Assembly (NCBI GenBank): GCA_002400415.1
Contig: DGQP01000007.1
Span: 77,373-141,372, forward strand
Direction of reading: 5' to 3'
DNA: 64,000 bases
From: Chitinophagaceae bacterium UBA4411
GTDB taxonomy: Bacteria; Bacteroidota; Bacteroidia; Chitinophagales; Chitinophagaceae
The notes under the pieces are model-generated. The model saw only the letters and a program-made list of their open reading frames with translations, was not told the DNA's origin and made no database searches. Below, piece by piece: positions 7,172 through 40,778 of this stretch. Position numbers and translations under genes: made by a program. Position 1 is the stretch's first letter; the number at the start of each line of letters is the position of its first letter.

Positions 7172-10100
7172 ATGAGTTATAAACCGGTTAATAAAGTTCG
7201 GATTGTTACAGCAGCTTCTCTTTTTGACGGACACGATGCTGCCATTAATATCATGCGCCGCATTATGCAGAGTAAGGGTGCCGAGATCATCCATTTAGGT
7301 CATAACCGTTCTGTTAAAGAGATTGTGGAAACGGCGATTGAAGAAGATGTGCAGGGGATTGCCATCACATCTTACCAGGGTGGCCACGTGGAGTTTTTTA
7401 AATACATGAAGGACCTGCTGGACGAGAATGGCTGTGGCCATATCAGGATATTTGGTGGCGGTGGCGGCACCATCCTTCCCGGTGAAATCGAAGAATTACA
7501 TCAATATGGTATCAGCAGGATCTATTCCCCTGATGACGGAAGGCAAATGGGGCTGGAAGGAATGATTGAGGATGTGATCAGGCAATGCAGCCTCCCCAAC
7601 TCCTCCGCAGGAGGGGCTTCAGCAGTTCAATGGAATGGAAAGCTTCCATTGGATGAGGTAAAAGATGTAAGAAAAATAGCGAAGGCAATAAGTATTGCAG
7701 AAGAAGGAAGAGATTATTCTGACCAATTGAAGGAAATAAAAAGATTATCGGACTCCAAAGACCCCCTTGCGGGGGGTGGGGGGGCGCCAGTACTCGGTAT
7801 TACCGGTACCGGCGGAGCCGGGAAATCATCGGTAACAGACGAGATCGTGCGCCGTTTTCTTGTGAATTTCACTGATAAAACAATTGCTGTCATCTCTGTC
7901 GATCCTTCAAAGAAAAAAACAGGCGGTGCATTGCTGGGTGACCGGATACGGATGAATGCAATCTCCCACCCGAGGGCTTATATGCGCAGTCTTGCCACAA
8001 GGGATGATAATACCGCATTAAGCAGTGCCGTGCAGGAAGCGATTGATATTTGCAAAGCCGCCGCATTTGATTTTATTATTTTGGAAAGTGCAGGTGTGGG
8101 GCAAAGCGATGCTTCGATACTGGATTATTGTGATATAAGCATGTATGTGATGACACCAGAATACGGAGCAGCTTCGCAACTGGAGAAGATCAATATGCTG
8201 GACTATGCAGACCTGGTTTGTATCAATAAATTTGATAAGGCCGGTGCCCTGGATGCTTTAGCAGATGTACGTAAACAATACAAACGCAATCATAGTTTAT
8301 GGACAGCCAAAGATGAAGAACTGCCCATTATTGGAACGATGGCCAGTAAGTTCAACGATGATGGGGTCAATCATTTATTTGAATTGCTGCTGAAAAAAAT
8401 TGAAACCAAAACAAAAACTGTTTTTGGTGGCTACCAGTTTGCTGAAACAGTGAAGGTTTCACAAGCTATTATTCCTTCCGGTCGCACCCGCTACCTGAGT
8501 GAGATCAGTGAGAATAACCGGAACTATGACCAATTGGTAAAAGACCAGGCAGCCATAGCTTCTAAATTATACCAGCTACAAGGTGCATTAGGAGTTTTGC
8601 AAAATAAAGAGGCTAAAGCCCCTCTTGCGGAGGGGTTTGGGGAGGCCATACAGCAACAGATCAGTTTTTACCAGGACCAGTTGACGCCTGTAAGCCGTAA
8701 GCTGATCAGCAACTGGCCTGAAAAAGTAAAAGAATACCAGAAAGACTATTACGAATATACCGTAAGGGACAAAGTGATCCGTCAGGAGATGTTTACGAAG
8801 AGTTTATCGGGTACAAGAATTCCTAAAGTAGTATTGCCAAAATATAAAGACTGGGGTGACTTGTTGAAATGGCAGGCACAGGAAAACGTGCCGGGTCATT
8901 TCCCTTTTACAGCTGGCGTATTTCCTTTAAAAAGGGAGGGAGAGGATCCGACTAGGATGTTTGCGGGTGAAGGTGGTCCGGAAAGAACCAATAAACGGTT
9001 TCACTATGTATCCACCGATCAGCCTGCCAAAAGATTATCTACGGCTTTTGACAGTGTGACTCTATACGGGGAAGATCCGGGTCATCGTCCCGATATTTAT
9101 GGCAAGATCGGCAACAGCGGGGTTAGTATTGCCACGGTGGATGACGCCAAGAAATTATACAGCGGTTTTGATTTATGTGATCCGAAGACCTCTGTATCCA
9201 TGACTATCAACGGACCGGCTCCGATCATTCTTGCTTTCTTCATGAATGCGGCTATTGATCAGCAATGCGAAAAGAAAATCACCGAGCTGGGTTTGTGGGA
9301 TGAAGTAAAAAAAATCAGTACAGTTAAATACAAACATCTTCCGGCCCCTCAATATCATAACGCCTCTTTTCCCGCCGAACTGCCGGAAGGAAATAATGGA
9401 TTAGGTTTAAAATTATTAGGATTGAGTGGAGAAGAAGTACTACCTAAAGAAATATATGAACAATGCAGGCAAACAGCTTTGCAGCAGGTGAGGGGAACGG
9501 TGCAGGCTGATATTCTGAAAGAAGACCAGGCACAGAATACTTGTATCTTCTCCACCGAGTTTGCGCTGAAACTGATGGGCGATGTGCAGGAATATTTTAT
9601 CCGGCAAAAGGTCAGGAATTTTTACTCGGTTTCCATCAGTGGTTATCACATTGCAGAAGCCGGCGCTAATCCTATTACCCAACTGGCTTTTACACTGGCT
9701 AACGGTTTTACTTATGTTGAATATTATCTCAGCCGGGGGATGAATATTGATGATTTTGCCCCGAACCTTTCTTTCTTCTTTAGTAACGGGATGGATCCTG
9801 AATACAGTGTGATCGGGCGGGTGTCGAGACGTATCTGGGCAAAAGCAATGAAGTATAAATACAAGGCAAATAAACGCAGCCAGATGCTGAAATATCATAT
9901 TCAGACATCGGGCAGAAGTTTGCATGCACAGGAAATTGATTTCAATGATATAAGGACGACATTGCAGGCTTTATATGCGATTTATGATAATTGCAATTCT
10001 TTGCATACGAATGCGTATGATGAAGCCATTACAACTCCGACGGAAGAAAGTGTGCGAAGGGCGATGGCGATACAACTGATCATTAACCGGGAACTGGGTA

Positions 10101-10591
10101 CAGCCAATACCGAAAATTTTAGCCAGGGAAGTTTTGCTGTTGAAGAACTGACGGACCTGGTGGAAGAAGCCGTCCTTGCCGAATTTGACCGCATCACTGA
10201 AAGAGGAGGTGTGCTGGGCGCTATGGAACGAATGTACCAGCGGAATAAAATACAGGAAGAAAGCCTTTATTACGAACACCAGAAGCATACAGGTGAATTG
10301 CCATTGATTGGTGTGAATACATTCCTGAATAAAAAAGGAAGCCCTACTATTATCCCGGGAGAAGTAATCAGGAGTACTACCGAAGAAAAAGAACAGCAGA
10401 TCAGGAACCTGGAAGCATTTTGGAAGAGAAATGAACTAAAGAGTGAAAATGAATTACTGCGATTAAAAGAAGTGGCCGTCAATAATGGAAACCTCTTTGA
10501 GCAGCTGATGGAAACGGTGAAGTATTGCTCGCTGGGCCAGATCACTCATGCTTTATACGAGGTAGGGGGACAATACCGCCGTAATATGTAA
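7172..10591 (+). CDS. icmF: fused isobutyryl-CoA mutase IcmF (B12-binding domain + MeaB-like G-protein + methylmalonyl-CoA mutase-type catalytic domain)
   Basis: 1139 aa protein. N-terminal B12-binding module ([10 protein letters not shown]...IHLG). Central MeaB/ArgK P-loop GTPase ([12 protein letters not shown], ...NKFD). Large C-terminal mutase barrel. Confidence 0.8.
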
Positions 10592-22551: not shown

Positions 22552-23163
22552 ATGGAAACGATCATCAACACGATTCCCGGTTACCGGGTCTATGAGTATT
22601 TGCTGGTGCTGAGCCCGCATGAAGAATTGTGGAACCGTATCATGAAAGTGAAGGAGGATTTTTCTAACGAGTATAAATCGGATCATGCGAAATGGGGCAA
22701 GCCGCATATCACATTAGTCAATTACCTGCAATATCAAATGATGGAGGAACGGATTGTTAACCGGTTGCATACCGTGGCGATGGGCTTTCCCCCGTTCAAA
22801 GTGGAATTAAAAGACTTTGGCAGTTTTCCTTCGCATACTATTTATATCAATGTAACCAGTAAGCTGCCGGTACAGCAGCTGGTGAAAGAAATCCGCACTG
22901 ATGGCCAGCGGCTCATGAAACTCAATGATGATAATAAACCGCATTTTATCATGGAGCCGCACCTGGCCATTGCAAGAAAACTGAAACCCTGGCAATATGA
23001 AAAAGGATGGCTGGAATACAGTAATAAACATTTCACCGGCCGTTTCATTGCCGGCGCAATGACCTTATTAAAAAGACCGGCGGGTGAAATGAAATATCAT
23101 ATTGCGAAGCGGTTTGAATTTCAAAACCTGCCGGTTGTTACAAGACAAGGGCAATTATTTTAA
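22552..23163 (+). CDS. 2H phosphoesterase superfamily protein (LigT/2'-5' RNA ligase-like)
   Basis: Two H-x-[TSA]-x motifs (PHITLVNY and PHLAIARK) are spaced as in LigT-like cyclic phosphodiesterases. Confidence 0.45.
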   Translation: METIINTIPGYRVYEYLLVLSPHEELWNRIMKVKEDFSNEYKSDHAKWGKPHITLVNYLQYQMMEERIVNRLHTVAMGFPPFKVELKDFGSFPSHTIYINVTSKLPVQQLVKEIRTDGQRLMKLNDDNKPHFIMEPHLAIARKLKPWQYEKGWLEYSNKHFTGRFIAGAMTLLKRPAGEMKYHIAKRFEFQNLPVVTRQGQLF

Positions 23164-24976: not shown

Positions 24977-25900
24977 ATGCAAGTTGACCTAGTTAAAGGG
25001 TTAAATCTGAGGGTCGAGGGAGAAATTGGGAAATTTAATACTTTGCCAATAGAGTACCTTGTAAAGCTTGCAGAGAACTTACAAAAGCTATTACAAGATA
25101 TTGCCAAACACCAATTGGAAGTAGATGGTGCTATTGATTTGGACAATTTTAAAGTTGAGCTTGCTGGCTTTAAAATAGGAAGCGCTATTCCTGAATTTGT
25201 TTTTACCCCAAGAATGAAAGCCGTCACTAGTGGTGATGTAATTGAACAACGAAAATTTGTGAATAATAAATTTGACTCTTATTTGAAGGTAGCTAATAAG
25301 GGTGATTATTCAGAGATTAAAAAAATTATTCCTCAACCAACAACTCGCAATATTATTGTTGATGATTTGTATCATTTTGCTACTACGTTTGGTAACTCAC
25401 CTGTCACAGTTGTTGAAATCAAACGGGGTAAAATTGTCCCAATTTATAAAATAAGTAAATTTAAGACTGAAATTAAGGATAAGCTTTTAACTAAGATTAC
25501 TGAAAGTATCGAGACAAAAGAAGAATATGAGGCTGTAGCAAAAATTAAAGTCGTTCGAAAAGGCGGGAAAATTACAAAATCTACGAAAGATGTTTTTGAT
25601 ACCAGGCATGGTGAACCTGGCTACTCTTTTGACACAATTGTATTTGAAAAAAAAGTGTATATCCTTGCATTCCCACTAAGATGTAAGATTGAGAAAGAAG
25701 AGGACTACTATGTAATACAGTCTGAAATGATTGACATAGTAGGTACAGGTAAAACAATTGATGATGCCGAAAAGAGTTTCTCAGAAGAATTCCATTTTGT
25801 GTACAAGCGTTATAACCAGCTAACAGAAAAAAAATTAGGAGATAGGCCTAGAAGAATTAAGACAATATTGAATTCCTTAGTCCTAAAAGTTGAAGAGTAA
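24977..25900 (+). CDS. hypothetical protein with C-terminal HicB-like (UPF0150/RNase H-like) segment
   Basis: AT-rich ORF. The C-terminal YYVIQSEMIDIVGTGKTIDDAEKSFSEEF resembles HicB antitoxin N-domains (G.G.T.eEA). The remainder has no recognisable motif. Confidence 0.4.
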   Translation: MQVDLVKGLNLRVEGEIGKFNTLPIEYLVKLAENLQKLLQDIAKHQLEVDGAIDLDNFKVELAGFKIGSAIPEFVFTPRMKAVTSGDVIEQRKFVNNKFDSYLKVANKGDYSEIKKIIPQPTTRNIIVDDLYHFATTFGNSPVTVVEIKRGKIVPIYKISKFKTEIKDKLLTKITESIETKEEYEAVAKIKVVRKGGKITKSTKDVFDTRHGEPGYSFDTIVFEKKVYILAFPLRCKIEKEEDYYVIQSEMIDIVGTGKTIDDAEKSFSEEFHFVYKRYNQLTEKKLGDRPRRIKTILNSLVLKVEE

Positions 25901-26250
25901 TGCCAGTTTTAGATGCTAAAAAGACATACCAAAACCTTCTAAGTAAAGGCTTCAAAGCAACCAAAGGAGACCATAAATATTTGGAGTATTATTTTAATGG
26001 CAAATTAATTCTTCATACAAAGATTAGTCATGGAGAAAAAGAACTACAAGATTTTCACATTGGTATGATGAAACGGCAATGCAAACTTGAAAAAAAGGAG
26101 TTTCTTGATTTGGCGAATTGCCCATTATCAGCCGAAGACTATTTAAATATTTTAAAAGAAGCAGGAATAATAACTGAAAAAGATTTAGTAACACTACAGC
26201 CCAATCCATCTCAGAATATTCCTAAACAGAAAAAAAAGCAAAAAAAGTAA
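25900..26250 (+). CDS. hypothetical small protein, possible HicA/YcfA-like
   Basis: 116 aa protein whose stop/start overlaps the upstream ORF. LLSKGFKATKGDHKYLEYYFNGKLILHTKISHG weakly resembles the HicA mRNA interferase core (GF...GSH..F....G....P.H). Lys-rich C-terminal tail. Confidence 0.35.
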   Translation: MPVLDAKKTYQNLLSKGFKATKGDHKYLEYYFNGKLILHTKISHGEKELQDFHIGMMKRQCKLEKKEFLDLANCPLSAEDYLNILKEAGIITEKDLVTLQPNPSQNIPKQKKKQKK

Positions 26251-26360
26251 TTTATCTTTTTTCTGCAAAAGACCGTATAAGTACGTTAAATCAGTAGGAA
26301 TCAGAAAGGAAGTTTGAGATTTGAACTTTATTCTTATAGCGTTTATAGCTATCTAAAATT

Positions 26361-26771
26361 ATGCAGCAAACTCGTAAGTCATTCCTTTCCAAGCTTACTT
26401 TATTGAGTTTAACTTTTGTTGGCTTATCTTCATTCAAAAGGCGGCTAATAGTGAACGAAAACAAAACTATGTTTATTCACCATGTTTTTTTCCGGTTAAA
26501 GAACCCGGACAGTAGTGCTGACCGGGATCAATTAGTGCAAGGCTTAACTAAACTATCCAAAGTAAAGACCATCCGCCATTTTCATATCGGCAAACCGGCT
26601 GATACCAACCGTGAGGTGATTGAAAGAAGCTATGCTGTTTCTTGGCTACTGCAGTTTGATAATGATGCCGACCAGGCCAGTTATCAATCCGATCCTGTTC
26701 ACCTGCAATTTATTGAAGAGTGTTCTCACTTGTGGAGTAAAGTGATCGTGTATGATTCAGTCAATGTGTAA
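26361..26771 (+). CDS. Dabb (stress-responsive dimeric alpha/beta-barrel) family protein
   Basis: HHVFFRLKNPDS...VKTIRHFHIGKPADT...QFDNDADQASYQSDPVHLQFIE matches the Dabb domain pattern. Confidence 0.6.
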   Translation: MQQTRKSFLSKLTLLSLTFVGLSSFKRRLIVNENKTMFIHHVFFRLKNPDSSADRDQLVQGLTKLSKVKTIRHFHIGKPADTNREVIERSYAVSWLLQFDNDADQASYQSDPVHLQFIEECSHLWSKVIVYDSVNV

Positions 26772-27007
26772 CTGTTCCTTAGTCCATGCATTTTTAAACG
26801 CCGGAAAAATTAATTTTAAAATTTCTCTTTAAAAATTTGGCAACAACAAAAAATTAATTCAATCTTTGCATCGCAAAACAAAAACATGCAACGCATACAA
26901 CTACATACTGAATCAGCGAATAGCTTTAGTCCCAAGGGCGACTATGCTGTGGCGGGGCAAGTATTGCTGCATGGATAAGTTGAAAAAACGAGTTCGATGA
27001 AATACAG

Positions 27008-27036
27008 GCCCCGCAAGAGATTGCGGGGTTTTTTAT
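27008..27036 (+). terminator. rho-independent terminator
   Basis: ccccgcaa-gaga-ttgcgggg followed by ttttttatt. No ORF lies between the Dabb gene and this site. Confidence 0.6.
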
Positions 27037-27313
27037 TCCCGGGATCACGGGAGCCCGGCACAAAAAATAAAGTGTAGGCAATGTGTGTAATTAGTAATGA
27101 AATGAATCTATTGTAAACGAAAAATAAAAAATGCGCAAGGAATTACGACATAAACGATTTAGTATAACAATGAATGATCAACTATCATCATCCGGCTGCT
27201 ATTGGTATGTACAGGCTGACAGGAGTAGTATGCCCAGGGGTAATGAAAGTGATAATAAACAGGAACGACCGGATAATATCCATACGTAGGTACAGCAGTA
27301 CATTAACGAGAGG

Positions 27314-27347
27314 AGCCCGGTCGCAAACAACGACCGGGCTTTTTTGT
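27314..27347 (+). terminator. rho-independent terminator
   Basis: agcccggtcg-caaacaa-cgaccgggct followed by ttttttgtg. Confidence 0.6.
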
Positions 27348-27601
27348 GTCCCGGAGAAGAAAATAAAAAGGGAAGGTATGTGATGAAATTTTTACTGGTG
27401 GTACTGGCAGTTCATTTTGTGGCTGAGCTGGTTAGTGCAAAACGAAAAGGAAATAAAAGGAACGACACGGAAAGGAAGAACCAAACGGTTTTTCACCCGG
27501 CAGAGTTTCCGCTGCGATAAAAAAATTATGTGCAGAAGGAGGAAATAAGCAATCCCCGTGAGATGCAGCGGGGATGCTTTTCCAAACAGTTCTTTTAACC
27601 T

Positions 27602-27674
27602 ATAGGAGCATTCCGACTGGCAGGATACTTCACCTGGAATGAAGAGGCTGCAGGTTCGAATCCTGTCTCCTATA
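27602..27674 (+). tRNA. tRNA-like gene 1 (anticodon loop cctggaa; TGG = Pro?), degenerate D-arm, no encoded CCA
   Basis: 7-bp acceptor ataggag/ctcctat. Anticodon stem cttca/tgaag. T-arm gcagg-ttcgaat-cctgt. Position 33 is C and the D-arm does not fold canonically. Confidence 0.4.
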
Positions 27675-27683
27675 CAATATGAT

Positions 27684-27757
27684 GGGCTGCCATGTTCCAA
27701 GGCTGGCGAAAGACATTTGCAATGTTGTTGTGCAGGGTTCGATTCCCTGGCGGTCCA
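27684..27757 (+). tRNA. tRNA-Ala(TGC), no encoded CCA
   Basis: Acceptor gggctgc/gcggtcc has the G3:U70 alanine identity pair. Anticodon loop tttgcaa. T-arm caggg-ttcgatt-ccctg. D-arm is atypical. Confidence 0.55.
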
Positions 27758-27765
27758 CGTCAGTT

Positions 27766-27838
27766 GATCTGTTCGTCTAACAGGTGAGGACGCAAGATTT
27801 TCATTCTTGTAATACGGGTTCGACTCCCGTACAGATTA
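27766..27838 (+). tRNA. tRNA-Glu(TTC), no encoded CCA
   Basis: Acceptor gatctgt/acagatt. D-loop contains GG. Anticodon stem caaga/tcttg with loop ttttcat. T-arm acggg-ttcgact-cccgt. Confidence 0.6.
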
Positions 27839-27841
27839 CAT

Positions 27842-27913
27842 GGTTCGTTGGTGTAACGGCTAACATCACAGATTGTCGATCTGTTGCTATGGGTTCGATT
27901 CCCGTACGAACCG
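27842..27913 (+). tRNA. tRNA-Asp(GTC), no encoded CCA
   Basis: Acceptor ggttcgt/acgaacc. D-arm gtgt-aacggcta-acat. Anticodon stem acaga/tctgt with loop ttgtcga. T-arm atggg-ttcgatt-cccgt. Confidence 0.6.
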
Positions 27914-27919
27914 CATAAT

Positions 27920-28013
27920 TGCCAGGTAGTGTAATGGTAAACATATCACACTTTGACTGTGATGTTCTCAGCCTGCCTGCCGGCAAAGGCAGGTTCGAGT
28001 CTGAGCCTGGCGA
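27920..28013 (+). tRNA. tRNA-Gln(TTG) carrying a 22-nt palindromic insertion between T-arm positions 53 and 54
   Basis: Acceptor tgccagg/cctggcg, with U8 and A9. D-arm gtgt-aatggtaa-acat. Anticodon stem tcaca/tgtga with loop ctttgac. T-stem ctcag/ctgag, T-loop ttcgagt. The hairpin cctgcctgccggcaaaggcagg (27972-27993) is inserted between G53 and T54. The gene is 94 nt as a result. Confidence 0.5.
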
Positions 28014-28025
28014 CAACGAAAACAT

Positions 28026-28098
28026 GTTGGCTTTAGCTTAATTGGTAAAGCATCCGTCTGTGCAACGGAAGATCAGGGTTCGAACCCCGGAGTCAACC
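28026..28098 (+). tRNA. tRNA-His(GTG), lacks encoded G-1 and CCA
   Basis: Acceptor gttggct/agtcaac. D-stem gctt/aagc with a GG loop. Anticodon stem tccgt/acgga with loop ctgtgca. T-arm caggg-ttcgaac-cccgg. Confidence 0.5.
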
Positions 28099-28109
28099 AA
28101 CAACGAGAA

Positions 28110-28203
28110 TACGACCGGGTGTAAGGGTAACATATTCGTCTCCTTCTCTTTCTGAGAAGTAAATAGCAGGCGGGTGTATTCAGTTCGAATCTGAAGGTCG
28201 TAC
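28110..28203 (+). tRNA. tRNA-like gene 7 (94 nt, isotype unresolved; candidate loop ctttctg)
   Basis: Perfect 7-bp acceptor tacgacc/ggtcgta and T-arm ttcag-ttcgaat-ctgaa. The middle region folds only into a cttct/agaag hairpin and carries extra nucleotides (agcaggcgggtg) before the T-arm. Confidence 0.35.
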
Positions 28204-28260
28204 GAGAATGATGGCTTAACCTTTTTGCCGGTAGTGTCAAGCCTATCAGTCAATATTAAT

Positions 28261-28352
28261 TGGCTTGTAGCTCAACTGAGGGATCTATCCGGCTTTTAAC
28301 CGGAGGGTTGTGGCCTGCCTCCCGGTAGGCGGTTCGAATCTCGCCGGGCCAG
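28261..28352 (+). tRNA. tRNA-Lys(TTT) with about 18-nt hairpin insertion 5' of the T-loop (imperfect T-stem)
   Basis: Acceptor tggcttg/cgggcca. Anticodon stem tccgg/ccgga with loop cttttaa. The hairpin ctgcctcccggtaggcgg (28315-28332) sits immediately 5' of ttcgaat. T-stem pairing is weak. Confidence 0.4.
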
Positions 28353-28362
28353 CTTTTTGAAT

Positions 28363-28436
28363 GTCCTGCTGGCAGACATGGCTGTATGCGCCCGACTGCA
28401 AGTCGGGAGAAAGAAGTTCGAATCTTCTGCAGGACT
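28363..28436 (+). tRNA. tRNA-Cys(GCA), no encoded CCA
   Basis: Perfect acceptor gtcctgc/gcaggac. D-stem gcag/ctgt. Anticodon stem cccga/tcggg with loop ctgcaag. T-arm agaag-ttcgaat-cttct. Confidence 0.5.
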
Positions 28437-28440
28437 CAAT

Positions 28441-28532
28441 GGATGAAAAGCTCAAAGGCTGAGCAGCGGTTTGTTAAGCCGTTGGTTGAAGGCCTGCCGG
28501 CAGGCAGGCAGGTTCGATTCCTTCTTCATCCG
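28441..28532 (+). tRNA. tRNA-Asn(GTT) carrying a 20-nt palindromic insertion between T-arm positions 53 and 54
   Basis: Perfect acceptor ggatgaa/ttcatcc. D-arm gctc-aaaggct-gagc. Anticodon stem gcggt/gccgt with loop ttgttaa. T-stem gaagg/ccttc, T-loop ttcgatt. The insert cctgccggcaggcaggcagg (28493-28512) lies between G53 and T54. Confidence 0.55.
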
Positions 28533-28536
28533 CAAT

Positions 28537-28621
28537 GTGAGTGCGACGAAGCCGGAGAGTCGTGACGGTCTGTAACACCGTTGCTTTTATAGCTGAGTAA
28601 GTTCGATTCTTACCACTCACA
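28537..28621 (+). tRNA. tRNA-Tyr(GTA), type II with long variable arm, no encoded CCA
   Basis: Perfect acceptor gtgagtg/cactcac. D-stem acga/tcgt. Anticodon stem acggt/accgt with loop ctgtaac. 15-nt variable arm. T-arm gtaag-ttcgatt-cttac. Confidence 0.6.
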
Positions 28622-28626
28622 CTTAC

Positions 28627-28710
28627 GGAGAGAGTCCGGTTGGCCATGGATGCTGTCTTGAAAACAGACTGGGTGTAAAAGCCTCAAGAGTTCGAATCTC
28701 TTTCTCTCCG
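28627..28710 (+). tRNA. tRNA-Ser(TGA), type II with long variable arm, no encoded CCA
   Basis: Perfect acceptor ggagaga/tctctcc. Anticodon loop cttgaaa. 17-nt variable arm. T-arm aagag-ttcgaat-ctctt. Confidence 0.5.
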
Positions 28711-28765
28711 CAGAATGGATTTGAAACATTAAGACTTGGAGATATAAAGGAACAAAGTAGAAAAA

Positions 28766-28890
28766 CTTCGTGTCCCGGTGTCTTAGTGCCTCAGTGGTTC
28801 AAAAAAGCTGAGTAACGAACAGAACGATGAAGGGTGCGACGCAAGGAAGATGACCGGAGTTACCATAGCTGGTAACAAAATAATAATGGA
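28766..28890. repeat. repeat elements Y+X (copy 2) inside the tRNA array
   Basis: The Y-half cttcgtgtcccggtgtcttagtgcctcagtggttcaaaa is followed by the X-half gtgcgacgcaaggaagatgaccggagttaccatagctggtaacaaaata. Both recur at 35534-35670, and the Y-half recurs at 23611-23650. Confidence 0.5.
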
Positions 28891-28940
28891 GAGTCATGGT
28901 CGGGGTAACACCCGGATAAGTTCGATTCTTACACTCTCCG
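28888..28940 (+). tRNA. truncated tRNA-like element (acceptor + T-arm mini-helix, 53 nt)
   Basis: Acceptor ggagagt/actctcc and T-arm taag-ttcgatt-ctta are present. A single internal hairpin is flanked by these, with no room for D and anticodon arms. Confidence 0.3.
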
Positions 28941-29030
28941 CAGCAGGTTTGCAGGTAAGTGAATTCGATAACCTGCCTGCCGGCAGGCAGATGAGGAATA
29001 GCGATCAGTCAATACTTATCGCAAACCAAT

Positions 29031-29106
29031 GGTGCTTTGGCAGAATGGTTATATGCGCCGGAGTGAAATCCCGGAGATCGTGGTTCAATTCCACGGGGCA
29101 CCACCA
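29031..29106 (+). tRNA. tRNA-Phe(GAA), the only array member with encoded CCA
   Basis: Acceptor ggtgctt/gggcacc, then discriminator A, then CCA. Anticodon loop gtgaaat. T-arm cgtgg-ttcaatt-ccacg. Confidence 0.5.
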
Positions 29107-39935: not shown

Positions 39936-40778
39936 TTATGGGGTGGGGTAGGCAGCGGAATACCCCGGGGATTTACCGATTTGCTGTAGTTGTTCAACGG
40001 CAGTTACAAGAAGCTCCAGTTTGGAAGACCTGGCAGGGAAAGAATCCGTATAACGGCTCTGGATATATGCCTTTTGGAGGTACTGAAGCAGGGTTTCTTC
40101 ATGGGGAGATGCAGGCGGAAAAACTAATTCTGCCGAAGGCTGAAAGAACAATGTGTAGCGGTGAAGGCGCAGCAGGTTATGGGTGGGTGGCCGGTAACCA
40201 GTACAGGAAAAGATAATACCGGTATAGACCTGTTCAGCAGCCTGGTGGAGCTGGAAAGCAGCCATAGACGGTTGGTTTCTGAGTAAAAGTAGTTTTGCAG
40301 CGGCCAGGAACTGGACTGACCGGTTGAACCAGGGAGCAGGATTAGGTAACGCCGGAACACTAATATGGCTGATTAATTCTTTGGCGGTAGTTGAATGACT
40401 ATAAAGTTGTTCTGCTTTTTCAGCGGTGAGCCAATAAAAATAATGACCCTCTCTTATCCCTTGTAATAGGCTGGTGCTGGCAATGACCCATGCAGTTACT
40501 TTAATAAATGAGGAACAGGATGTTTCAATCCAGTCCTGGATGGTTTCACTGTTCTGATGATTAAATTCATTGATGGTTACAAGTAAATGGTAATGAGTAA
40601 TTGTTTTACCCTTTATTTCAGCGGTAGAAAAAATGGTACGGGTTGTTTGCTGCTCTTTTGTTTCGGATAGCAGGAAAATATAACCGGTTTGCAGTTTGGC
40701 TGTAATAGCTTGTACGATTTGTTTCCGTATCGGGAGAACAGAGTGAAACTCCTCTTGCTGGCAGGCCGGAACTTGCAT
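39936..40778 (-). CDS. HEPN domain-containing protein
   Basis: The C-terminal half reads AAFQLHQAAEQVYTGIIFS..G..PPTHNLLRL...YIQSRYTD, matching the HEPN pattern (fHaqQa.EkalKa......THdL..L ... sRYpd). Confidence 0.5.
   Translation of the reverse strand: MQVPACQQEEFHSVLPIRKQIVQAITAKLQTGYIFLLSETKEQQTTRTIFSTAEIKGKTITHYHLLVTINEFNHQNSETIQDWIETSCSSFIKVTAWVIASTSLLQGIREGHYFYWLTAEKAEQLYSHSTTAKELISHISVPALPNPAPWFNRSVQFLAAAKLLLLRNQPSMAAFQLHQAAEQVYTGIIFSCTGYRPPTHNLLRLHRYTLFFQPSAELVFPPASPHEETLLQYLQKAYIQSRYTDSFPARSSKLELLVTAVEQLQQIGKSPGYSAAYPTP

Follow-up and report, generated by a model that had tools for sequence, protein, structure and literature searches.

What is served by a dense cluster of tRNA genes in which no isotype is repeated and several members are visibly malformed? 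The question is raised by positions 27602–29106 of a 64,000-nt stretch of contig DGQP01000007.1 (hereafter the window), which belongs to the assembled genome of Chitinophagaceae bacterium UBA4411. An earlier reading made from the letters alone (the sequence-only reading) had described this segment as an array of 14 tRNA or tRNA-like genes of phage or mobile rather than core character. According to the analysis presented here, the array is probably an operon of supernumerary, accessory tRNAs of the L-array type, which constitutes the 5′ end of a conserved Chitinophagaceae RNA-repair module and may provide a back-up or decoy supply of tRNAs.

ARAGORN with default settings recognised ten tRNAs on the + strand of the segment, and the relaxed setting (-ps80) returned exactly 14 tRNA or tRNA-like genes, all on the + strand within ca. 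1.5 kb, in agreement with the number originally proposed. The additions obtained at -ps80 were a tRNA-like RNA, here called X (28111–28203), Tyr-GTA (28535–28622), Ser-TGA (28627–28711) and a fragment (28854–28941). The anticodons assigned in the sequence-only reading were correct according to ARAGORN, with Pro(TGG) left unnamed there, and its statements that each isotype occurs once and that tRNA-Phe alone encodes the CCA end were likewise borne out, by ARAGORN and by reading of the sequence, respectively. Spacers of 3–12 nt had been described; ten of the 13 are indeed short (1–12 nt), whereas the remaining three measure 57, 175 and 89 nt. Recognition by covariance models, which had been put forward as a check, was divided: the gathering score of the Rfam tRNA model was passed by seven genes (Glu, Asp, Phe, His, Pro, Asn and Gln), whereas Ala gave no match even at E≤10, Lys reached merely 16.6 bits, and the Tyr-like and Ser(TGA)-like genes matched the tRNA-Sec model only, at 32.7 and 37.6 bits, both below threshold.

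In 5′ to 3′ order, the ARAGORN-called array begins with tRNA-Pro(TGG) (27602–27675; Rfam 46.7 bits), in which C33 replaces the usual U33 in the alignment, and tRNA-Ala(TGC) (27684–27758), which has a weak D-arm and the G3:U70 pair that had been reported for it and was seen again on reading the sequence. These are followed by tRNA-Glu(TTC) (27766–27839; 61.2 bits), tRNA-Asp(GTC) (27842–27914; 56.1 bits), a 95-nt tRNA-Gln(TTG) interrupted by a palindrome, as seen in the sister-locus alignment (27920–28014), and tRNA-His(GTG) (28026–28098; 47.3 bits), for which an encoded G-1:C73 was read from the sequence. Downstream of X are located a degenerate, 93-nt tRNA-Lys(TTT) (28261–28353), tRNA-Cys(GCA) (28363–28437; 47.2 bits in a local scan), which is missing from the closest sister arrays in the alignment, and tRNA-Asn(GTT) (28441–28533), also 93 nt long and palindrome-interrupted according to the sister-locus alignment. 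The class-II tRNA-Tyr(GTA)-like gene (28535–28622) and the class-II tRNA-Ser(TGA)-like gene (28627–28711), both called at -ps80, have homologues in 13 and 11 loci, respectively. The array ends with tRNA-Phe(GAA) including CCA (29031–29106; 48 bits). Within the 175-nt spacer (28712–28886, +) a hairpin, GTTACCATAGCTGGTAAC, was observed, which gave no match in Rfam and is kept in the related locus L010 and partly in L006, L008 and L144.

The tRNA-like RNA X (28109–28205, +) was found in 28 loci by nhmmer. It combines a 7-bp acceptor stem, a D-arm and a T-arm with a long, interrupted “anticodon” arm, the tip of which is an invariant 5-nt loop (CUC-UUUCU-GAG). On the basis of an RNAalifold alignment of 18 sequences, 14 of its 27 pairs showed compensatory changes, and across the seven closest loci X is nearly identical. 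ARAGORN labelled it “Arg-TCT”, at -ps80 only, and no matching family was found in Rfam. X is a conserved non-decoding tRNA-like RNA, and no pseudogene. One of the members that had been called degenerate, X, is hence a conserved and covarying RNA.

Other irregularities are due to loss of sequence. The spacer after X (28206–28260, +) holds the first ca. 10 nt of a deleted tRNA-Arg according to the alignment, in which the sister strains retain Arg and Met/Leu/Ile at this position. Upstream of Phe, the element formerly taken for a mini-helix fragment turned out to be a remnant of tRNA-Ser(GCT) (28887–28941, +). L008 and L010 retain the gene intact, and aligned against these the remnant shows a 32-nt internal deletion that took the D-arm and the anticodon stem.

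The interruptions in Gln, Lys and Asn are copies of a palindromic insertion, CCTGCCTGCCGGCAGGCAGG, with the form (CCTG)2-CCGG-(CAGG)2 or a close variant. Copies in the window are located at 27972–93, 28313–31, 28493–512, 28972–91 and 30866–85, i.e. at five sites spread over 3.3 kb of RNA genes, whereas no copy was found elsewhere in the window (60 kb). In the three tRNA genes the copy stands directly 5′ of the T-loop TTCGA. The Gln insert (22 nt, 27972–27993) separates the 5′ strand of the T-stem from the T-loop, and its site is empty in six sister loci; the site of the Asn insert (20 nt, 28493–28512), directly 5′ of the T-loop, is empty in sister loci as well. Removal of the inserts in silico gave 73-nt Gln and Asn tRNAs, and in the minimum-energy folds with the inserts the T-arm was lost. 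The degenerate copy in Lys (28313–28331) occupies the same T-arm position as in Gln and Asn (repeat families D3 and D7). This Lys gene has no orthologue in the sister arrays and is too unlike the Lys of the sister strains for an empty-site comparison. A fourth copy (20 nt, 28972–28991) lies beside a decayed T-loop (GAATTCGATAA^); the site is empty in L008 and L010 and filled also in L134, L146 and L150, and in L146 the sequence there still reads GGTTCGATCA. The fifth copy, the variant CCTGCCTACCGGCAGGCAGG (30866–30885), is situated in the loop of a small hairpin and represents an insertion in comparison to six relatives. No target duplication was found at the four sites with an empty-site comparison (Gln, Asn, 28972 and 30866). 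In related metagenome loci, five of six copies were inside arrays, which account for 5.8% of the bases (p = 4e-6); the copy in L134 interrupts X at the same 53/54 junction, and the copy in L139 lies in the middle of the T-loop of Ile.

Two simpler explanations of the extra sequence were considered and set aside. That Gln, Lys and Asn owe their length to long variable arms is ruled out for Gln and Asn, because the extra 20–22 nt are missing from sister strains and are positioned at the junction of T-stem and T-loop. An artefact of sequencing or assembly is an unlikely source: the window copies are not alike (+AA, shifted, A variant), the filled site is shared by independent assemblies (L134, L146 and L150), and isolate genomes carry the palindrome, too.

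The palindromes could also be intron-like inserts that are excised and the exons rejoined by RtcB, in which case the hairpin-bearing tRNAs would be functional. RtcB, the gene of which lies 7 kb downstream, serves archaea and animals as tRNA-splicing ligase, the nuclease-like YkuK and LigT are close by, and the T-stem/T-loop junction that is occupied in Gln and Asn of the window is also occupied in X of L134. The insertion points vary, however, between 53/54, mid-loop (L139) and 3′ of the loop (28972), sister strains are without the inserts, and the 20-mer is also present in intergenic DNA, in terminator loops, nested in itself, and in unrelated phyla. Neither a splicing endonuclease nor a bulge-helix-bulge motif was identified, though no test was aimed at the bulge-helix-bulge type. 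Splicing of these inserts is accordingly regarded as very unlikely.

The array in this strain is partly disabled, by the inserts in Gln and Asn, the degenerate copy in Lys, the deletion in Ser(GCT) and the loss of Arg/Met. At least four members are thus visibly damaged, which would mean that the cell cannot depend on them and that the array is dispensable. The non-standard features listed in the sequence-only reading are a mixture: C33 in Pro and the weak D-arm of Ala are real oddities, and the rest is explained by the conserved tRNA-like RNA X and by plain damage.

Such damage would be unexpected in an ordinary housekeeping tRNA operon, and the comparison of related loci points in the same direction. 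Eleven loci (L001–L011) were fetched via homologues of YkuK, the gene directly downstream of the array, and a metagenome scan added 80 loci. A tRNA array of 1.1–1.5 kb was found directly upstream of YkuK, and AAA, SPFH and RtcB genes downstream, in 11 of the 11 YkuK loci, two of which additionally had WYL, Ro60/TROVE and RlaP. Most of the metagenome loci with YkuK of at least 75% identity and enough upstream sequence carried 4–15 tRNAs upstream on the same strand, and AAA/SPFH/RlaP/TROVE/RtcB downstream. YkuK homologues 84–99% identical to that of the window bore Chitinophagaceae labels. A second YkuK paralogue in the family (ca. 72% identity; L196–L204) had neither tRNA array nor RtcB, and therefore the array is tied to one paralogue only; both paralogues were observed on one 1.06-Mb contig (L136 and L198).

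Across these loci a recognisable order is retained (Pro, Ala, Glu, Asp, Gln, His, X, Arg, Leu/Met/Ile in some, Lys, Asn, Tyr, Ser and Ser in some, and Phe or Trp). Bacterial tRNA operons are common, and intact identity elements would agree with a housekeeping function. Array membership differs, however, even between strains with YkuK 96–99% identical, several members are broken in UBA4411, the scores are low for bacterial tRNAs, and divergence within the tRNA families goes down to 34–60% identity, which makes an ordinary housekeeping operon extremely improbable. In two relatives the anticodon was seen to have switched within an otherwise near-identical tRNA, from Arg-ACG to “His”-ATG in L010 (3074–3147) and from Gln-TTG to CTG in L007 (3246–3318). 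The commonest members of all the arrays were Lys-TTT, Phe-GAA, Asn-GTT, His-GTG, Gln-TTG and Arg-ACG. By a simple check the share of CCA-less genes across arrays was ca. 90%, in which His was miscounted, the true share being higher.

The damage could alternatively mean that the whole array is a decaying relic, i.e. non-functional pseudogenes drifting after an old acquisition. Disruption of Gln, Asn, Lys and Ser(GCT), deletion of Arg/Met, the poor or nil Rfam scores of Lys and Ala, and the loss of the Glu T-arm in the aligned L001, L010 and L011 are all in line with decay. Against it, dozens of lineages hold intact cloverleaves through compensatory change: the array tRNA families have median identities of 66–89%, yet at least 97.6% of pairs are kept, with 5–18 compensatory pairs per family. 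Identity elements are retained (G3:U70 and G-1:C73), X is nearly invariant in close loci and covarying in distant ones, and the linkage to repair genes is tight. A relic is thus considered unlikely, and the conservation pattern fits tRNAs that would be evolving fast and yet be functional.

The array is linked to YkuK and an AAA ATPase and, beyond a non-coding gap of 640 nt, to SPFH/Band-7, an unknown open reading frame (ORF), two RlaP genes and RtcB, in this order and with the named genes all on the + strand. The YkuK/DUF458 RNase H-like protein (29132–29617; Pfam PF04308, E=1.6e-36) starts 25 nt after tRNA-Phe, and the AAA ATPase (29721–30791; PF00004) is its conserved partner in related loci. 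Beyond the gap follow the SPFH/Band-7 protein (31428–32573; PF01145, E=2.1e-29), two RlaP-family nucleotidyltransferases (33699–34445 and 34438–35508; PF10127, E=3e-69 and 5.1e-25), and the RNA ligase RtcB (35681–37144; PF01139, E=2.5e-79), ca. 7 kb downstream of the array.

The non-coding gap between the AAA and SPFH genes contains a second structured RNA (30940–31075, +), which adjoins the Band-7 gene and is a circularly permuted, YrlA-like tRNA-like RNA. Its elements are arranged in the order T-arm, loop-closed acceptor stem, D-arm, anticodon-like hairpin and conserved 3′ hairpin. The Rfam YrlA model matched it with 36.9 bits (E=2.4e-6), short of the gathering score of 69. Present in 35 related loci according to nhmmer, the RNA showed compensatory changes in 16 of 24 pairs, and its anticodon-like 7-nt loop displays a triplet that varies between loci (GAU, UAU, CUG, CAA, GUU, UCA, GAG and others).

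At the opposite end, the array is preceded by a conserved leader (27383–27584, +), which was found in 30 related loci by nhmmer and consists of a 45-codon hydrophobic small ORF (27383–27520) and, 3′ of it, the hairpin CCCCGTGAGATGCAGCGGGG; in L001, L006 and L008 the gene calls include a small gene at the leader position. Two small ORFs were in fact observed 5′ of the array on the + strand, at 27133–27291 (52 codons) and 27383–27520 (45 codons), with a hairpin after each, and in several sister loci both appear among the called genes. The 45-codon product has a hydrophobic stretch and then a basic one. The small ORFs could specify a leader peptide or, alternatively, a small peptide resembling a toxin.

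Further upstream are located LigT (22552–23163), a PA0069-family radical SAM protein and Dabb. The slot between the radical SAM and Dabb genes (24977–26250, +) is variable; in the window it holds two ORFs of 307 and 116 aa without family match, and in L001 (3223–4301) a DUF433 and PIN-like pair with the look of a toxin-antitoxin system.

These surroundings bear on whether the array could be a phage-borne tRNA island, or one carried by an integrative and conjugative element, as cargo offsetting codon usage or host defences. Dense, non-redundant and CCA-less arrays are typical of large phages, single array tRNAs were 76–83% identical to phage tRNAs, and in L002 and L004 the module stands in genomic neighbourhoods unlike that of the window. 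However, genes of phage, integrase or conjugation type are absent from the array flanks, and the locus is syntenic among close strains. In a distant blastn of 26000–31000 against phage genomes no record covered more than one tRNA, and a viral scan with YkuK returned one match of 42%, without an array. Transport by phage or conjugative element is consequently judged quite improbable. Of the original claim of phage or mobile rather than core character, the accessory, non-core part is upheld by the strain-variable content and the damaged members, and the phage origin finds no support, the flanks being chromosomal genes (the MCM–MeaB fusion, GH63, the sulfatase, UmuDC and the capsule locus). No integrase or transposase was seen at the module; because module neighbourhoods differ in distant relatives, a cassette-like, transferable unit is plausible.

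The favoured explanation, an accessory tRNA operon at the head of an RNA-repair module, comprises in order the leader, the array with X, YkuK, AAA, the YrlA-like RNA, SPFH/Band-7, two RlaP and RtcB. Co-transcription of the array with the repair genes would follow from the 25-nt gap between array and YkuK, and from the finding that no convincing + strand terminator was seen between the array and RtcB. The array tRNAs would be matured by RNase P/Z and the CCA-adding enzyme, and could then replenish or shield a tRNA pool damaged by tRNA-cleaving toxins or translational stress, when RtcB and RlaP would reseal the broken tRNAs and X and the YrlA-like RNA might act as cofactors or decoys. Lys-UUU, GUN-anticodon (Asn/His/Asp), Gln, Glu and Arg-ACG tRNAs are classic targets of anticodon nucleases. 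The back-up or decoy model fits because the common array members are such targets, and because of the fast evolution and the anticodon-loop oddities. Judged from these sequence features, the array, X and the permuted RNA with its hypervariable “anticodon” may jointly represent decoys and spare parts against tRNA-cleaving toxins.

Several points weigh against this explanation. No usable promoter was found near the array with either the sigma-70 or the Bacteroidetes TTTG-N17-23-TAnnTTTG pattern. A toxin directed at tRNAs was not recognised in the locus, where the HEPN protein at 39936–40778 was not examined. Selection of the sequences for family covariation relied on a structure-based detector, and the analysis is thereby biased towards paired columns. 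Within Chitinophagaceae the array is common and not sporadic, unlike typical L-arrays. Redundancy with the housekeeping tRNAs is deduced from the damage and not from a genome-wide count. With regard to a toxin, HEPN domains are often RNases. The HEPN protein mentioned (280 aa, C-terminal HEPN domain, − strand) is encoded ca. 2.8 kb beyond RtcB, and might be relevant to the pairing of RNA damage and repair.

Outside the family, the palindrome was searched for in one genome per species. The consensus CCTGCCTGCCGG(C/T)AGGCAGG was present in at least 120 stretches, against ca. 9 expected by chance when equal base frequencies are assumed. Among the matches listed, the perfect 20-mer occurred in Patescibacteria, Omnitrophota, Planctomycetota, Bacteroidota (including isolates), Proteobacteria, Nitrospirota and Chloroflexota. 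The palindrome was also found in 48 viral contig stretches (the palindrome loci are labelled L012–L131 and L213–L260). Again among the matches listed, the flanks paired as a stem of at least 6 bp in 12.5% of cases, against 2.5% at control positions, and seven of 123 copies were at most 150 nt from an intact tRNA gene. Some copies reside in terminator loops, in intergenic DNA or at the exact centre of another copy. In L057, removal of the copy yields an extra tRNA-Val that spans the insertion site. The flanks in L034 and L067 resemble an interrupted tRNA D-arm, and there ARAGORN calls no tRNA even with the copy removed.

No gene was found to travel with the palindrome in an all-against-all blastp of the ORFs within 4 kb of 120 listed copies, the top family being present at eight loci, nor was a linked transposase found within 4 kb of the listed copies. 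As to a target motif in the flanks, the sole signal was depletion of A at +1 (T at −1), with G on both sides of the G..T variant. Searches of the literature by exact string gave no match, and by keyword nothing relevant. Other short palindromic motifs were seen beside the 20-mer in unrelated phyla, GTCATCCTGAGC...GAAGGATCTC and CCCTCTCC...GGAGAGGG (L102, L029, L092, L115 and L239), and these neighbouring motifs hint at a wider class of palindromes common to several phyla. A tentative interpretation, which we hold possible rather than probable, is that the palindrome is an undescribed cross-phylum mobile mini-insertion, which makes no target duplication, prefers hairpin loops including tRNA T- and D-loops, and disables at least two accessory tRNAs in this strain. 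If mobile, it would be among the smallest known insertion elements and a practical source of mis-annotated tRNA genes.

The remainder of the window encodes, among others, a MeaB–methylmalonyl-CoA-mutase fusion, GH63, an M1 peptidase, a sulfatase, an aldehyde dehydrogenase, UmuDC and a Wzz/polysaccharide-export (capsule) locus. The fusion ORF (7172–10591, 1139 aa) joins a B12-binding domain to MeaB and the mutase in an IcmF-like architecture. A further ARAGORN call, a 96-nt tRNA-Gly(ACC) at 7769–7864 (+), lies inside this ORF and is a false positive.

To our knowledge, accessory tRNA arrays are widespread and their function has been tested in one cyanobacterium only. Here, in a family abundant in soil and fresh water, an array of fast-changing content is firmly linked to a full RtcB/RlaP/Band-7 cassette for repair, and this offers a natural system for asking whether bacteria keep spare or decoy tRNAs beside the enzymes that mend cleaved ones. 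The analysis also yields two conserved structured RNAs, X, which is outside Rfam, and the permuted RNA, which is weakly covered by Rfam YrlA.

Among known systems, REP/RAYT repeats, Rickettsia palindromic elements and the GC clusters of yeast mitochondria are the comparators for the palindrome. Like these, it is short, GC-rich and dispersed, makes no target duplication and can enter genes of structural RNAs; unlike these, it measures just 20 nt, has the same sequence in very distant phyla, and shows a marked preference for hairpin loops and the T- and D-loops of tRNAs. As for the array itself, the tRNA clusters of phages T4 and T5 are used against anticodon nucleases. The array resembles phage tRNA clusters in having one gene per isotype, anticodon-nuclease targets as its frequent members, and oddities of the C33 type, and differs from them in being chromosomal and coupled to repair enzymes of the RtcB type.

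RtcB beside Band-7 and a tRNA-like RNA (“b7a-tRNA”), or YrlA beside Band-7, has been described (10.1101/312249, citing Burroughs & Aravind 2016). The likeness to the systems as summarised there is in the clustering of RtcB, Band-7 and RlaP and in the tRNA-like RNA adjoining the Band-7 gene; the difference from that summary is the whole array of real tRNAs which precedes the operon here. RlaP extends damaged RNA 3′ ends by 1–2 nt, and repaired tRNAs require it to regain their function (PMC12776372). Compared to YrlA, the RNA of the window is under the Rfam threshold, and the triplet in its anticodon-like hairpin is hypervariable. The locus also departs from a Ro60–Y RNA–RtcB operon in both of its marks, as no Ro60/TROVE domain was found in the ORFs scanned at 29132–37144, and the YrlA-like RNA stays below the Rfam gathering score (69). 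TROVE is present in the relatives L004, L139, L177, L181 and L183, of which L004, L139 and L183 have Ro60/TROVE and WYL instead.

In architecture, the array resembles L-arrays, which are horizontally acquired and have neighbourhoods enriched in RNA-processing genes including rtcB (PMC8421152). The L-array of Anabaena stays silent as long as translation is unimpaired; once it is impaired, array and rtcB are induced together (PMC8421152). Shared features are the co-oriented, tightly spaced and non-periodic tRNA genes, mostly without CCA, the pseudogenes and odd members, the frequent insertions, deletions and duplications, and the RNA-processing neighbours, which here are RtcB, two RlaP, YkuK and LigT. 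On the other hand, the Chitinophagaceae arrays are shorter (9–15 genes versus up to 43), contain the conserved non-decoding X, have no adjacent HNH homing endonuclease, are common in their family, and are physically fused to one particular repair operon, YkuK-AAA-SPFH-RlaP-RtcB.

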